Origin: Candidatus Eiseniibacteriota bacterium
GTDB taxonomy: Bacteria > Eisenbacteria > RBG-16-71-46
Length of the DNA: 25,064 nt
Direction: 5' to 3'
Assembly: GCA_005893185.1 (NCBI GenBank)
Contig: VBOS01000149.1
Location: 1-25,064 of the forward strand
Below the pieces are notes generated by a model. That model did not search any database. It saw only the letters and a program-made list of their open reading frames with translations, and was not told the DNA's origin. Below are positions 19,018 through 25,064 of this stretch, piece after piece (the first letter of the stretch is position 1; each line of letters opens with the position of its first letter). Made by a program: the position numbers and the translations under genes.

Positions 19018-19046
19018 ACGCTATCAGGGATGGGGGGAGGGGTCAA
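19018..19046 (-). promoter_or_regulatory. Sigma70-type promoter of the BMC operon
   Basis: Minus strand TTGACC (19046-19041), exactly 17 nt, then TAGCGT (19023-19018), with an extended -10 TGn immediately upstream. Predicted TSS near 19011. Confidence 0.65.
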
Positions 19047-19216
19047 CGCGCATCTGCGTGTGAATTGGGAGTTTCGCAACGTCTGTCGGGTCGCGGCCGT
19101 GTGGAATATCGCGAGCGAGGTGCCGATGACCGGGGCTTGGAGGGTGGGCCCGGCCGTTCGTAGGCTGGGTTCAGCCGAGCAAAGCGAGGGGGAGCGATGC
19201 AGAGCGGAAGGATTGC

Positions 19217-20225
19217 ATGAAGCTGCCGCGAATCCTGCCACTCGTTCTCCTTGCTCCGCTGAGCTTCGCCTCTCCCCCTGCGGCAGACCCGGCCGCGGCG
19301 GATTGCGACCGGGTGCTCTGCTATTTCGCCTGCACACTGAGCAAGGTAGAGTGGCGCATTTACGATCCGGCTCGCGGGACCGACAAGACGTTCCTCACGC
19401 ACGCGCAGCCCGATGTCGTCCGCTGGGATTCCTCGATGACCCGGGTGGAGTACCGGATCGGCCGCGAGGTCTTCGAGGTGGATTGGAAGCTCGGGGCGAA
19501 GCCGCGTCACGCCGTTCGCCTGCCGGAGGTCCGGGGGATGGAGGATTGGTGGTTCAATCCCGACAGCTCGTCCTGGCAGCTCTGGACCATGGCCCCGCTG
19601 CCGGGGGGACCGGACCGGCCCGAGTACAAAGACTGCCGCGACGAGCTCTGGCAGTCATCTCGCAACGGGACAGACTGGCATCTCGTCGTCGCGGACACGG
19701 AAGATTGCCGGGGCTGGTACGAGGGTGATTTTCGCCCCAGCTTCGAATCGGACCCGCGCGGGGGATCGAGAATGCGACGCGCGCCGGCCGTGACGCCGGG
19801 CAGCCTGACGCAAGACCTGTCACCCCAGTCGGACGGCGCCGAAACGGGTCGAGTCGCCTCCAGATTGCGAATTCTCTTTCTACTTCGTCCCCTCGCGCAC
19901 GGTTTCGCAGCGTGGAACCATGTTCCGGTACTGCGATTGTCCACCCGAATCGCCCCGAACCCTCCACCCGGTCTACCTGGCCGACCGGGAGCATGGGACG
20001 CGCACTCTGCTCTGTGGGCCGGAATCCTGCCCCGAAGAGATATCGGGGAACAGCATCAGCGAGGAGTGCGGCCTGTTGCTTATCGCCTGCAGCATCGACA
20101 CGACACGCCTCGTCGATATCCGGACGGGGAGAGACGTGAAGCTAGTGGGCAACTCGACCGGACTTCGGCACGGGGGACTCGTGATGGGGATCGACGCGTT
20201 CTGGGGGCCGCCCCTGAAACGATAG
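19217..20225 (+). pseudogene. Secreted Cys/Trp-rich hypothetical protein, probable frameshift near 19847
   Basis: Signal-peptide-like MKLPRILPLVLLAPLSFAS and SD AAGGA. Protein-like sequence continues after ...SPQSDGAET in the 19920..20225 frame (VESPPDCEFSFYFVPSRTV...GLLLIACSIDTTRLVDIRTGRDVKLV). Removing one G from GGG at 19846-19848 would join the frames. Confidence 0.55.
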
Positions 20226-20256
20226 GCGGGCACTAGAGGCCGGTCCGCTCCAGGAG

Positions 20257-20367
20257 AAAATCATGGGCCCCGGCCGCGATGCGTGTTGTCGTGCAGGGGT
20301 GCGTTTGCACTGCGGGCTCGGGGCCCCAAAAAAGTTCCCCACCATGACCGTGCGCCGGTCCGTAAGA
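20257..20367. repeat. Structured direct repeat, copy 1 (111 bp)
   Basis: Matches 24942..25053 with three differences (GGGG vs GGGGG, T/C at 20311, C/T at 20343). Contains nested inverted repeats and an A6 tract. Confidence 0.95.
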
Positions 20368-20388
20368 TCTCACCTCCATTCGACCCCC

Positions 20389-21702
20389 TCAGCTGCGCAG
20401 GGGCGCCGCCACTTTGCGGTGGGATGGCGCCAGAAGCGAGAGCGCGTAGCGCACCCGTTCCTCGAGTGAGGCCTCCGGCATGCTCTCGCACGCCTCGGCT
20501 GCCCGGCGAGCATCCGCCAGCCGGACGCCCAGCTTCCGCAGCCAGGGGATCACGTCCCGATCGTCCGTCTCTCCGAGCGCCCGTGCACCAACATGCCCCG
20601 GGGCATGCTGGGTCTCCTGCATCCGCCCGCGAGCCGCCGACCCTTGCGCGCCGTGTCCAGGATGCCCCGGGGCATGTTGCTCCTCGGCTCGCCGGGTCCG
20701 TGCCTCCTGCCGTTTGTGGTTCATGAACGTCGTTCCGAAGGCGCACGCGGCGGCGTACTGATTGTGGGCGCGGCACAGCAGCCGGAGGTTCGCCACCGTC
20801 GCCTGACCCCCGCACGCCACCGGATCCTCGTGGTCATACCCGAGCTTCCACGTCGCCGTGCAGCGCTTCCCAGCGTCGCTGACGAACGTGCACCGGCCCT
20901 GATCGCGCTCGCACACGGCGCGCTTGACCGCCGCCGGGATGTGGCGGGCGGAGGCTCCGCGCCGTGAACCCGACCGTGGCCGGGCCGTGGCCGCGAACTT
21001 CTGCTTCTCCTGCTTCTCGATGAACGCATCGACGCACCATTCGATCAGGGTGGCCAGGACTCCCGAGGGAAGCTGGTGGCTCGCCAGGGTCCGGGCGTAG
21101 CGGATCTTCTCCTCGACCCGCCGGGGAAAGCTGCACTGGAGGGCGGAGCGCTCCGCCGACAACGGCAAGATCCTGGCCTGGCCGCCGGGGGACTCCACAT
21201 GCCCCGGGGCATGCCGGGCCGCGTAATCACCCACGGGATCCGGAGCCTGCTCCCCGGTCGGCGCCGAGGTGTCTCCCAGTCGCGCAGGCAGGTCGGGCTT
21301 GGGGAACCGCTCGGCCAGCAGATGAAGGATTTCATCGCGGGTTTTGTGGGTGGCGGCCTCCAGCAGCTCGTCGGCGTTTTCGGGAGTCAATCGGGGCGCC
21401 AGGGTCACGACGCCCGAGAGGTGCAAGCGTCCCTCGGCCACCGCCGCGAAGATCGCGGGAAACTGGCGCGCCGCACGGGCGGCGTAGACCCGTTTGGAGG
21501 CTGCGTCTTCAGAGAAACGGAGCTCGCGGATGCAGTACTCCTTCATGCACGGATAGGCCGCCGGCAGGTAGAGCCTGCGCTCGTCGAACTCGGCGATATG
21601 AGCGAGGACATCGGCATCGGAGGCGCGTCCCCGCGCGACGACTGTCTTCAGGCTGCAATTCAACTCGCCGTCGCCGAGGTGGGTGAGCGAGTAGCGGTTC
21701 AT
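20389..21702 (-). CDS. HNH endonuclease with DUF222-like N-terminal helical region (multi-copy mobile-type family)
   Basis: Start ATG 21702 with SD GGAG. N-terminal LAHIAEFDERRLY...YC..EL.FSEDAA.KR..AAR.ARQFP.IF.A...GRLHLS. C-terminal RHIPAAVKRAV.ERDQGRCTF...RC......YDH..P...GG...VANLRLLCRAHNQY, with CxxC-like Zn ligands and an apparently intact HNH core. Confidence 0.9.
   Translation of the reverse strand: MNRYSLTHLGDGELNCSLKTVVARGRASDADVLAHIAEFDERRLYLPAAYPCMKEYCIRELRFSEDAASKRVYAARAARQFPAIFAAVAEGRLHLSGVVTLAPRLTPENADELLEAATHKTRDEILHLLAERFPKPDLPARLGDTSAPTGEQAPDPVGDYAARHAPGHVESPGGQARILPLSAERSALQCSFPRRVEEKIRYARTLASHQLPSGVLATLIEWCVDAFIEKQEKQKFAATARPRSGSRRGASARHIPAAVKRAVCERDQGRCTFVSDAGKRCTATWKLGYDHEDPVACGGQATVANLRLLCRAHNQYAAACAFGTTFMNHKRQEARTRRAEEQHAPGHPGHGAQGSAARGRMQETQHAPGHVGARALGETDDRDVIPWLRKLGVRLADARRAAEACESMPEASLEERVRYALSLLAPSHRKVAAPLRS
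20592..20607. repeat. Perfect 16-bp palindrome CATGCCCCGGGGCATG inside the HNH gene (copy A)
   Basis: Read directly from the sequence. Encodes HAPGH. Confidence 0.9.
20662..20675. repeat. 14-bp palindrome ATGCCCCGGGGCAT inside the HNH gene (copy B)
   Basis: Read directly from the sequence. Encodes HAPGH. Confidence 0.9.
21198..21213. repeat. Perfect 16-bp palindrome CATGCCCCGGGGCATG inside the HNH gene (copy C)
   Basis: Read directly from the sequence. Encodes HAPGH. Confidence 0.9.
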
Positions 21703-22016
21703 GACCCGAACTCCAGCGGGGGCTGGTCTGATCACGGGGCCGCGGGGGCGACGCTTCCTTGTATCACGAGGGTCCGCGGCGCTCTCAGGGCCGCGGAGAG
21801 CTCACGAAACGCTGCGGCGCGAGATTTTTCCTGGGACGCAACAGTTCAAGCGGTCCGCACGCGGCCGAGGCGCTCTGATGCCCGCCGACAGGAGCCTCAG
21901 CGAGGAAGGGCGAGGCGTATGCCTCAGGCTGTCAAGAGGGATTTTATCGATGGCGCCAGATTCTCGACGCACGCTGACCGCGAGGATCCCAGGTGGGGCT
22001 CAAGCAGCTCGATCCG

Positions 22017-24866
22017 TTACCGAAGCACCGCGACCCGAGCGCGGGCTACGCTCCCGCCCTGAGTGAGCCGGAGGAAGTAGATTCCAGGTTGAAGGGCTCG
22101 GGCTGCCGTGAGGTCGAGCGCGTGGATCCCCGGCCCGAACGTGCCCACCTGCCGCGCCTGCAACAGTCGCCCTGCCACATCCATCAGTTCAAGGCGGGCT
22201 TGGCTTCCGTCGCGCAGCGAGAACTCCACCCGGAGTCGGCCGTCCGCGACCGGGTTCGGGATCGCCCCTCGGATCGCCAGCGCGAGCTGCGCCGGTGCGG
22301 GGTCCCCGACGCCGACCGTGGCCCCGATCGAGAACGCCGGGCTCACGCCGAGAACGCCCTCCACGATGGCGCCGGTCTCAGCGGGGGATTCCAGCAGCAC
22401 CGCCACCTTCGCCTGGTCGGTCGGAACGCTCGGCACCGTCCAATCGAAGCTCCCGGTGTTGGGCCGCTGGCGGGCGATCGTGCTCCAGTTTACGCCGCCG
22501 TCGGGCGAGAAGAGCAGACTCACCGGTCCTGCCACGACACCGCCCGGTGTCTCCCAGCGCACCTGCGCAACAGAGCCTCCCGCGAGATGGCTGCCGGCCC
22601 GCGGGGCCGCGATCCTCCCGCGGCCTACGCGGATGGTATCCGTGCCGATGAAAGCGTGGCCGTCCAGCTTGCCTTTGATCCTGACCGGAACGCTGTCGCC
22701 TTCGGTTACGGCTAGCTCCACCGCGAGCCGGTCGAACTTCACCGTCAGATCAGGGATGCCATTCCCGTCGTGGTCCCCGAGCACGGTGGGAGCCTCAGGG
22801 TCCACCGGCACCGTGCCGTTCAGCCGGATCGACGAAATGTCGATGTCGCGGGCCTCGAAGGGCAGGGCGGGCTCGAGGAAGCCCGTCACCCACTTGCCGC
22901 GCGAGGCCAGGTTGAGCGTGCCGGGCGAGAAATCGAACGTCATCGAGATCGGGGGCGGTTCGAGCGCGTGTACTACGACGTCGCTCGGACTCCGGGGGCA
23001 GAGGCGGAACGTGCCGCTCGCGAAGTGCAGGATGCCGGTCACGTCGATGATCGAGCCCGAGTCCGGCGGGGCGTAGCCGTCGAGCACAGTGTTCAGGCTC
23101 GAGATCAGGATCGTGTCCTCGAAGGCGCAGCACGGCCCAGCGGCGAGGAAGCTCTGGCCGACGGCCCGCCGCTCCGCGACCCGCAGGTCGTGGACCTTGA
23201 CCAGCATTCCCTCCTCGTCCTCGCCGTTGTCGATATTCTGAGCCGCGTCGCAGGTCAGGTCCGTCAGCACGGTGATGTTCTTGTCGTCCCTCGGCGCAGG
23301 CGCCCGGACGGCCCCGAGGTCCCCGAGGAACACGTTGTTCACGATCTCGGTCTCGCCGCCGAACTCCAGGATCTGCCCCGCGACCAGGTACCGGTTGCCG
23401 ACCACGATGGGCGCGCGGGGACCGAAGATCGCGATGCCGCTCCGATCGGCGCCGTCGGCGTCCTCCATGTACTGCAAGGAGCCGAACTGCCCAACCCCGA
23501 CGCCGCGCACCGTGATCCGTGTGCCCGGCGAGGTCCCGGCGCCCGCGAAGCGCGACCGGTCGACGCACACCGTCAGGCTATCCTCGTCGGCCGCCTGAAC
23601 CTGCTTCACGTCGAGCACACCGTTGATGAACGTGCGGCTCTGATTCGCCATCAGACAATCCGGACAGATCTCCGACCCGATCCCGCCGGCCGTGACGGTC
23701 TCGATGTCACCGTCCCTCCGGACGCTGGTGATGTCGAGCAGCACCACGTGGCCTCCACCACCCTCCACCGTGGCAAGGTCCACGGTTGAGCCATCGATCT
23801 TCGAGGCGAGCGAGTAGTTGCGTTCGTCCTCGGCCGTCGCGACGTCCACGCGCCGCCCGAATTCGAGCCGCACCCTGGTGTTGCTGGTCCCGAGCGCGTG
23901 CGGCCCGTCCGGCGGGCCGGTGAAGCTGTCGTCGATCGGGTAGGCGTCCGTCAGGCTGGTCGCGAACGGTCCGAACAGGTCGTCGCTGTCGCGGACCTGT
24001 ACGCGGTAGGACGTGAACGACGGGTTGCCCGATGGACCCTGGTTCACGATGCCCTGCAACGAGTCGATCAGCGTGCCCACCGCCGGCGGCGTGAAGGTGG
24101 TGAGGGCGTTGCCGTCGATCAGGGTGCTGTCCGACGGGCTCGCCACGCTCACGACCAGGAACGAGCCGAAGGGAAGCCCGGGACGCCCGCCCTGAACCGA
24201 GGTGCGGCCGACGCGGAGCTGACCGCGAACCCGCACCAGGCAGGCTTCCCACTGCTCCTGGATCGCGCTCGTCGCGTTCGGGCTCGGAATCCAGCTCATC
24301 GACGTGGGGGTTAGAACCTGGAAGGGCGGGAGCGGGTTCCCCGAGCTGATCTTGCGGATGACGATGTCGTTCGTGCTCTGGACGACGTCGGGGCCCTCGA
24401 TCTCGGTCGTGCCGTTGAGGCTGGGGAACTCCTGCACGGTGCCGTACACGGCAACGCTGTCGCCGAGGTTGAGGCTGTAGGGAACCGCCTTCCAGTTGTA
24501 GGCGCCCGTGAACACCTGAACCCCGTTGTAGGGACCGCCCTGGCTGTTCTGGATGTAGAAGGCGTACGCAGCCGGCTTGGCGTCGAATCCGATGATGATG
24601 CCCTTGATGCCCAGCACCGTGTCCCCGGAGGCCGGGGAGAAAACCCTCGGGTGGCAAGGTGCGAGCAGCGTGTCAGGCTGCTGGACGTCGTAGATCCTGA
24701 GCGTGTCCGGACAATTTCGGTACGGAGGACCGGGCGGGTACTTGTCTCTCGAGTAGGCGGAACTTCCGGTGCATAGCAGCAGGGCGGTCGCGAGGAGGGC
24801 CTTGGTCAGGCTCCTCCGGTATGGGTTGGCAGAGAATTCAGGGACGCGGGCCGGGGCGGTGATCAT
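22017..24866 (-). CDS. Large secreted multidomain protein (949 aa): tandem OB-fold-like modules, Ig-like domains, C-terminal T9SS/FlgD-like sorting domain
   Basis: Likely start ATG 24866, followed by a signal-peptide-like LTKALLATALLLCTGSSAYS. Two repeats of I/V.DVQ...V.V.G.....Y.(Q/E)(N/D)..G...G(V/I).(V/I)F...G..V.V.G.(V/I).EF...TEI. C-terminus LAIRGAIPNP...VEFSL....ARLELMDVAGRLL...PGIYFLRLTQGG....RVAVLR. The ORF-track start at 25028 lies inside repeat copy 2 and is probably spurious. Confidence 0.85.
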   Translation of the reverse strand: MITAPARVPEFSANPYRRSLTKALLATALLLCTGSSAYSRDKYPPGPPYRNCPDTLRIYDVQQPDTLLAPCHPRVFSPASGDTVLGIKGIIIGFDAKPAAYAFYIQNSQGGPYNGVQVFTGAYNWKAVPYSLNLGDSVAVYGTVQEFPSLNGTTEIEGPDVVQSTNDIVIRKISSGNPLPPFQVLTPTSMSWIPSPNATSAIQEQWEACLVRVRGQLRVGRTSVQGGRPGLPFGSFLVVSVASPSDSTLIDGNALTTFTPPAVGTLIDSLQGIVNQGPSGNPSFTSYRVQVRDSDDLFGPFATSLTDAYPIDDSFTGPPDGPHALGTSNTRVRLEFGRRVDVATAEDERNYSLASKIDGSTVDLATVEGGGGHVVLLDITSVRRDGDIETVTAGGIGSEICPDCLMANQSRTFINGVLDVKQVQAADEDSLTVCVDRSRFAGAGTSPGTRITVRGVGVGQFGSLQYMEDADGADRSGIAIFGPRAPIVVGNRYLVAGQILEFGGETEIVNNVFLGDLGAVRAPAPRDDKNITVLTDLTCDAAQNIDNGEDEEGMLVKVHDLRVAERRAVGQSFLAAGPCCAFEDTILISSLNTVLDGYAPPDSGSIIDVTGILHFASGTFRLCPRSPSDVVVHALEPPPISMTFDFSPGTLNLASRGKWVTGFLEPALPFEARDIDISSIRLNGTVPVDPEAPTVLGDHDGNGIPDLTVKFDRLAVELAVTEGDSVPVRIKGKLDGHAFIGTDTIRVGRGRIAAPRAGSHLAGGSVAQVRWETPGGVVAGPVSLLFSPDGGVNWSTIARQRPNTGSFDWTVPSVPTDQAKVAVLLESPAETGAIVEGVLGVSPAFSIGATVGVGDPAPAQLALAIRGAIPNPVADGRLRVEFSLRDGSQARLELMDVAGRLLQARQVGTFGPGIHALDLTAARALQPGIYFLRLTQGGSVARARVAVLR

Positions 24867-24941
24867 GAGACGAGCCGAGCGTACTCCACGGCTGTGACAG
24901 GTTGCGACGCAAGTGAGGTCTGGGCGCGCATGGAGCATTCC

Positions 24942-25053
24942 AAAATCATGGGCCCCGGCCGCGATGCGTGTTGTCGTGCAGGGGGTGCGTTTGCACCGCG
25001 GGCTCGGGGCCCCAAAAAAGTTCCCCACTATGACCGTGCGCCGGTCCGTAAGA
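24942..25053. repeat. Structured direct repeat, copy 2 (112 bp)
   Basis: Near-identical to 20257..20367, same orientation, offset 4,685 bp. Confidence 0.95.
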
Positions 25054-25064
25054 CTCCTTCGCTC

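Follow-up and report, generated by a model that had tools for sequence, protein, structure and literature searches.

Small RNAs that depend on sigma-54 for their transcription and end in a terminator are known from several bacterial groups, including GlmY in Enterobacteria, CrcZ in Pseudomonas, Qrr in Vibrio and Pxr in Myxococcus. Microcompartment genes can in turn be preceded by regulatory leaders, examples being the AdoCbl riboswitch-containing EutX/Rli55 and the ANTAR-controlled eut leaders of Enterococcus and Listeria. The eut B12 riboswitch is mentioned in PMC8547011. Here we report a new covarying RNA with a sigma-54 promoter motif and a predicted terminator, present in about two thirds of the sampled Candidatus Eisenbacteria, together with two covariance models for it (R1 and R2).

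The RNA came to light through a repeat in a single stretch of DNA, hereafter the window, which is the whole 25,064-bp contig VBOS01000149.1 of a Candidatus Eiseniibacteriota bacterium (assembly GCA_005893185.1); the bin comprises 3.1 Mb in 567 contigs with 70% G+C and is ~80% complete, and the public runs holding the region are soil metagenomes. Reading the window alone, the original prediction had taken the repeat for a 111-nt plus-strand unit folded into a three-way junction and a separate hairpin, selected as an RNA or single-stranded DNA structure and not recognised as a tRNA, a known riboswitch, a ribozyme or an attC site. A selected RNA structure, one in no Rfam family, is what we find as well; the plus strand, the 111-nt unit and the junction did not survive comparison with relatives.

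Results

A direct repeat and the conserved RNA to which it belongs

Two copies of the repeat are present in the window in the same orientation, copy 1 at 20257-20367 and copy 2 at 24942-25053, with the three differences that had been noted between them confirmed as T20311>C, C20343>T and one extra G in the GGGG run 20296-20299. No further copy was found in the 3.1-Mb assembly. A dispersed repeat of the REP or MITE type was rejected, there being two copies in the window genome and one in most relatives. Short open reading frames cross the repeat on both strands, and a small protein shared by the copies was likewise rejected, being ruled out by the single-base indel that separates them and by an ATG in one copy that reads ATA in the other.

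A DNA search recovered the 111 nt from 23 of 61 relatives, mostly once per genome, at full length and with 71-85% identity. In the aligned relatives conservation starts at the left border of the repeat, and to the right of the repeat all of them continue into a near-invariant stretch of ~75 nt (GACTCCTTCGCTCGCGATAGGGGGATCAGCCC...CAGGGAAC), with which copy 2 agrees in each of its 11 remaining bases. The repeat is the 3′ third of a predicted and previously undescribed minus-strand RNA of ~180-280 nt. We regard it as probable that the repeat represents the 3′-terminal 111 nt of a conserved minus-strand noncoding RNA gene, copy 2 being its native end and copy 1 a truncated duplicate.

Covariance model R1, built from 19 full-length sequences, located the RNA in 79 of the 89 genomes of the window genome's family, usually once, and in all 44 high-quality genomes of that family (44/44), where it is mostly single-copy; the two other families of the order gave weaker matches. 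With the broader model R2, the RNA was found in 103 of 151 genomes sampled across Candidatus Eisenbacteria, and it is restricted to this phylum. Three contigs that carry the RNA core (L120, L154 and L160) are filed in Methylomirabilota, Udaeobacter and Saccharimonadaceae bins, and are probably mis-binned Eisenbacteria contigs. At curated Rfam thresholds neither the window nor a full-length relative matched a known family, nor did permissive thresholds yield one, the window giving only chance-level matches outside the element; a literature search found no description of the RNA. 6S and SRP RNA were rejected as identities, both being found above cut-off elsewhere in five near-complete relatives, and the RNA locus itself scores 27 bits with the 6S model, for which the cut-off is 46.4.

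Structure and strand of the RNA

RNAalifold analysis of the 19 full-length sequences yielded two domains, a ~100-nt irregular hairpin (Domain I) and a second, GC-rich stem (Domain II), arranged as Domain I, a U-rich linker, and the Domain II hairpin with its U-tract. Domain I is closed by GUUCCCUG/CGGGGAAC and has an invariant apical region, GGCUGAUCCCCCUAUCGCGAGCGAAGGAGUC. At the native copy, Domain II occupies 24942-25012 on the minus strand, with a GC-rich stem GGGGCCCCG/CGGGGCCC, a variable interior and then AUGAUUUU, while the consensus fold and the pair counts place the U-rich linker, the 3′ strand of Domain I and the start of its apical region at 25013-25064 (minus strand); the 3′ strand of the closing helix P1, GGGGAAC, lies at 25026-25020 (minus strand). 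The invariant part of Domain I contains GAAGGAG, and in many family members (among them L028, L041 and L052) the Domain II loop often includes CACCUCC, a sequence identical to the anti-Shine-Dalgarno core; the window copies lack CACCUCC.

Covariation among homologues is strong by pair counts, which were made for related sequences on alignments fitted to the model. In the order-level set A4, drawn mostly from the window's family, 95.5% of cells are paired and 31 of 46 pairs show double changes (148 cells); the corresponding values for the phylum-wide set A6 are 93.3% and 37 of 46 pairs (261 cells). For both sets none of 500 shuffles reached the observed values, and slid controls were ~45% paired. 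The alignment of the 19 full-length sequences discriminates between the strands, with standard pairs in 903 of 943 cells on the minus strand versus 806 of 943 in the mirrored, plus-strand version; a plus-strand reading would turn 100 cells that are G.U on the minus strand into A.C. The homologue consensus fold reaches -56.9 kcal/mol on the minus strand versus -34.6 kcal/mol on the plus strand, contrary to the plus-strand-specific structure that had been proposed. Function is assigned to the minus strand, on which the HNH and cargo genes also lie, and not, as had been thought, to the strand antisense to them.

Every helix of the earlier plus-strand fold can be drawn at its coordinates, and yet the minimum free energy of that strand, -43.4 kcal/mol, does not improve on the dinucleotide-shuffle mean of -43.5 kcal/mol (z 0.03), and its minimum free energy fold lacks the two-arm junction; the minus-strand fold of the repeat has a z of -1.38 relative to shuffles. 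What remains of the three-way junction is the outer stem, which is the Domain II stem and shows double changes at 8 of 8 pairs across the phylum. The two inner arms are not conserved: of 49 homologues, only 3 are predicted to have two hairpins in the interior when the RNA strand is folded, and 9 when the plus strand is folded. Domain II has a length of 25 to 68 nt; in genus g20 it forms one plain hairpin, as it does in more distant families, where it consists of a simple hairpin with a U-rich tail. Because C and A predominate in the interior of the RNA strand, the plus strand is G/U-rich there and wobble pairs are easily drawn on it. The bases of the supposed separate hairpin, GACCG-TGCGC-CGGTC, make up the 3′ strand of Domain I, whose partner strand in homologues lies outside the repeat; in several homologues the local GACCG/CGGTC hairpin is broken, and four sequences have C-G to U-A double changes at these bases that are explained by the long-range pairing only.

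The variation between the copies, too, reads differently once relatives are considered. At each of the positions at which the copies differ (3 of 3), a same-genus relative (G001) agrees with copy 2, from which it follows that the changes all arose in copy 1. The T-to-C change, earlier taken as the conversion of a G-U into a G-C pair, is thus a derived T in copy 1 (T20311) that turns a C-G pair on the RNA (minus) strand into C.A, and variation that had seemed consistent with structure is instead decay of copy 1. The case illustrates how far a single-sequence fold can lead astray, since comparison with relatives overturned the assignment of the strand, the limits of the unit and the reading of one change as "compensatory".

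Putative promoter, terminator and neighbouring operons

To the right of the conserved core lies CGCAAG-N-GGTGCC, the reverse complement of which, TGGCACC-N4-CTTGCG, corresponds to the sigma-54 -24/-12 consensus, and the orientation of this motif points to the window minus strand as the transcribed one. Of 49 distinct copies of the RNA, 42 have the motif (TGGCAC-N5-TTGC) in the 260 nt upstream, compared with an expectation of 0.002 per 260 nt calculated from the background of the window genome. At the other end, both copies have an 8-bp GC stem followed by AUGAUUUU on the minus strand, and Domain II together with AUGAUUUU is the predicted intrinsic terminator of the RNA. A transcript would accordingly comprise, from the sigma-54 promoter onward, a short or variable 5′ stretch, Domain I and the linker, and would be ended by Domain II; its invariant internal loops would presumably bind a protein or another RNA.

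In the window's family and order, the RNA and its sigma-54 promoter are preceded by two oligopeptide-type ABC ATPase genes and followed by TTGACC-N16-TGnTAGCGT and then genes for BMC-H, BMC-H, BMC-P and an aldehyde dehydrogenase. The promoter motif and the terminator are kept in families f11, f4, f18 and f10, where the RNA precedes sppA-hup-rnr and a PilZ-like gene, and in family f13, where a large transporter-like gene follows. Second copies of the RNA in family f3 precede genes for a Fur-like regulator, a histidine kinase and an NtrC-like sigma-54 activator (L075, L078, L080 and L083, at G047:C4, G043:C58, G040:C28 and G038:C17), an NtrC-like two-component operon thus carrying a paralogous copy of the RNA in some genomes. 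No sigma-54 motif was seen upstream of these second-class copies, the terminators of which end ~25 nt before the Fur-like start codon; they may constitute a feedback link between the RNA and the sigma-54 activator.

A second promoter-like motif, TTGAC-N14-17-TGnTAnnnT, stands after the RNA terminator at 42 of the 66 homologous loci, where the background frequency is 0.003 per 430 nt; the whole window genome has only 37 matches to it. In the window it occurs once, as TTGACC-N16-TGATAGCGT at 19018-19046 (minus strand), before the microcompartment operon, at the point where the conserved locus is taken up again beyond copy 1. Elsewhere it often reads TTGACC...CCCTGNTAGCGT and fronts whichever operon comes next. 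Such a motif could be the strong housekeeping promoter of the lineage or the site of a specific sigma factor.

The reading of the RNA that we favour, by a modest margin over an even chance, is that of an independent sigma-54-dependent small RNA. It fits best because the RNA appears to have its own promoter and its own terminator, because the next operon has a motif of its own, and because the neighbouring genes change while the RNA is a near-universal single copy. The main alternative, to which we would give a distinctly smaller though still appreciable chance, is a cis-acting leader, either a riboswitch or a protein-controlled attenuator, in which Domain I would sense a signal and Domain II, as a conditional terminator, would control whether transcription begun at the sigma-54 promoter enters the downstream operon, in the window's family the microcompartment operon. 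In its favour, the RNA and the next operon run in the same direction at all the loci inspected, with gaps of ~80-480 nt at microcompartment loci, it has an aptamer-like domain with invariant unpaired bases followed by a terminator, and the closeness of the second-class terminators to the Fur-like start codon is what a leader would show; furthermore, to go by the sequence, CGGGG in the P1 3′ strand could pair alternatively with CCCCG in the terminator 5′ strand. Against it, the downstream genes lack a common theme across families, the strong promoter-like motif intervenes between terminator and operon in those 42 loci, there is usually one copy of the RNA per genome, and in the window genome 4.7 kb and a convergent gene separate the RNA from the operon, whose own promoter motif remains. 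Of the traits of a riboswitch, a covarying aptamer-type fold and an expression platform are found here, and a shared metabolic theme without a separate promoter is not.

Native and duplicated copies

Copy 2, with the 11 core bases that adjoin it (GAGCGAAGGAGUC), forms the native 3′ part of the RNA gene at 24942-25064 (minus strand). This region aligns to positions 55-178 of the 178 in the covariance model with 88.8 bits and an E of 1e-18, as a 5′-truncated match, and it is recognized as the native tail by its continuation into the conserved core, up to the point where the contig stops. A search of the window genome's assembly for the 5′ half of the RNA showed it to be absent, the sigma-54 promoter region lying beyond the contig end; from the 11 extra bases and from synteny we infer that the gene itself is intact in this genome.

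Copy 1 (20257-20367, minus strand) is a duplicate of the last 111 nt of the RNA, comprising the 3′ strand of Domain I and the terminator. It begins 22 nt past the HNH stop codon, has neither a 5′ partner strand nor a promoter, and in the alignment diverges at once where relatives enter the conserved core; its global match to the covariance model is weak (49.7 bits). Without the 5′ half it cannot form Domain I, and it appears to be a decaying relic that can at most serve as the terminator of the HNH transcript.

Possible origin of the duplication

In minus-strand order, copy 2 is followed by 76 nt, the cargo gene (24866-22017), the HNH gene (21702-20389), 22 nt and copy 1, after which come a convergent plus-strand open reading frame, the promoter motif and the microcompartment operon. 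The 4.7-kb segment with the cargo and HNH genes that lies between the copies is missing in the same-genus G001, where the distance from the RNA to the microcompartment genes is 483 nt and homology to the window resumes at 19051. The repeat starts inside Domain I and stops precisely where the terminator ends, and the duplication is private to the window genome among those searched. The convergent open reading frame (19217-20236, plus strand) encodes a signal peptide, and its frame appears to shift near 19900, a second frame at 19920-20225 reading like a real protein, so that the bin may contain a frameshift here, or else two genes may be present; the 1.2-kb stretch around it has no counterpart in G001.

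Copy 1 would have arisen as the segment with the cargo and HNH genes was placed immediately behind the RNA gene, and two routes to this state are the most likely ones. In the first, Campbell-type recombination would have taken place through ~113 bp of homology; in the second, a tandem duplication of the RNA gene would have been followed by insertion. Tandem whole-gene copies do occur, at G034:C82:2506-3214, where each has its own sigma-54 motif, and at G010:C197:4604-4946, where the second copy is degenerate and lacks the motif. No integrase or recombinase is encoded between the copies, only the HNH/RuvA_C-like and T9SS cargo proteins, and no empty-site or excised form was seen in the Logan contigs of public runs. 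A candidate excision joint linking 20278 to 24941 with 39 foreign letters was rejected, as it comes from the RNA of a relative.

It is very improbable that assembly created the duplication artificially, by joining strain variants into a chimera through shared sequence in an organism with a single copy. Such an origin would be in keeping with a bin of 567 contigs and 80% completeness, with the position of copy 2 at 11 nt from a contig end beyond which the rest of the RNA gene is missing, with thin public-contig coverage at 24684-25064, and with junctions that occur in no independent assembly, neither of them having been found in JGI metagenome contigs. It is opposed by the three differences between the copies, by the unique sequence on both sides of each, and by Logan contigs that bridge both borders of copy 1, the copy 2 junction lying outside their coverage: a contig from run X1, which may be the source sample, covers 20313-20814 and joins copy 1 to the HNH gene, and contigs from X2 and X3 join its other flank.

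The HNH and cargo genes

The HNH nuclease gene (20389-21702, minus strand) encodes 437 aa from the ATG at 21702, with an alternative GTG start at 21735, and its product combines an HNH core and a RuvA_C-like C-terminal domain with a ~230-aa N-terminal part that has no assigned domain. By sequence the protein has no relative in the PDB, and no record of the exact protein was found elsewhere; its nearest relative (72% identity) stands in an unrelated context, with 39 nt after the stop codon and the element absent. The family is numerous, with ~10-30 matches per genome in the lineage, a total of over 1,200 matches spread over 84 of the 89 genomes of the window genome's family, and at least 3,262 homologues among the matches listed from the protein collection, and it looks like a selfish or mobile gene. 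Several of its copies in the bin sit at contig ends. The product of the cargo gene (22017-24866, minus strand) is a secreted protein of 949 aa that carries a T9SS C-terminal sorting domain (28.1 bits with TIGR04183, cut-off 23), and the nearest homologues of the gene, with 61% identity over residues 19-630, are on other contigs and have no adjoining HNH gene. A recurrent cassette of T9SS cargo and HNH genes was rejected, being absent in five homologous loci.

A search for direct repeats flanking other HNH genes at ten loci from long-contig or closed genomes revealed no consistent pattern. In a closed relative (L103, G016:C1, ~2,425,656-2,429,590), a ~130-nt repeat stands right after an HNH stop codon and again 3.8 kb downstream, so that here, too, a long duplicated sequence adjoins an HNH gene at its 3′ end, though in an arrangement that differs from that of the window.

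Least probable of all is the idea that the repeat itself functions, as a plus-strand RNA or single-stranded DNA junction and a recombination or processing site of an HNH-cargo element, for although the copies bracket exactly the two genes, copy 1 starts 22 nt after the HNH stop codon, the L103 repeat has a like position and the plus strand allows several G.U pairs, HNH genes are absent from the vicinity of the RNA at all 155 of its other loci (0/155), the nearest HNH relative lacks the element, the element is mostly single-copy in relatives and part of a longer RNA, and the evidence is for the minus strand, with arms that are not conserved, a plus-strand fold no better than shuffles and a G/U richness that eases wobble pairing. 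The absence of HNH genes from those 155 loci, together with the occurrence of HNH and cargo relatives elsewhere, marks the repeat as sequence of the host RNA gene and not as the end of an HNH element.

Discussion

In a more far-reaching and tentative reading, the RNA would be a new phylum-wide sigma-54 class whose invariant Domain I binds a metabolite or a protein, as an orphan riboswitch or as an NtrC-linked sequestering RNA, and the HNH/RuvA_C gene would separately be mobile, its insertion having made the duplication. We put this forward as a possibility with the odds against it. For an uncultured soil phylum the RNA is one of few handles on regulation, and its ties to sigma-54, to the microcompartment locus and, through paralogous copies, to the NtrC-like operon offer hypotheses that can be tested.

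Among known systems in which an HNH-domain gene adjoins structured noncoding sequence, HEARO, the omega RNA that accompanies IscB, offers an obvious likeness. An IscB-omega RNA system was nevertheless rejected here, the HNH protein scoring 16.2 bits with the IscB model against a cut-off of 175 and in the HNH part only; moreover, unlike HEARO, the Eisenbacteria RNA has no match to the Rfam HEARO family and is conserved without an HNH neighbour, at 155 loci. The duplication itself resembles the attL and attR ends of islands at tRNA and tmRNA genes, in that the 3′ end of an RNA gene has been duplicated, the copies flank an insert, and the gene stays whole through the copy that is attached to its body, whereas the window insert, unlike those islands, is without an integrase or recombinase.

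With the eut leaders the Eisenbacteria RNA has in common a conserved fold and an intrinsic terminator upstream of, and co-directional with, microcompartment shell genes. It differs from them in not being a cobalamin riboswitch, as it has no Rfam match, in that no ANTAR-type paired hexaloop hairpins were seen, in preceding unrelated genes in other families, and in having a promoter motif after its terminator. The closest counterparts are GlmY, CrcZ, Qrr and Pxr. Unlike these, the Eisenbacteria RNA matches no Rfam family and has the form of one long irregular hairpin plus terminator; like them, it is a structured noncoding RNA of one to a few hundred nucleotides with a predicted terminator at its end, stands behind a putative -24/-12 promoter, usually in a single copy, and is conserved within its lineage.
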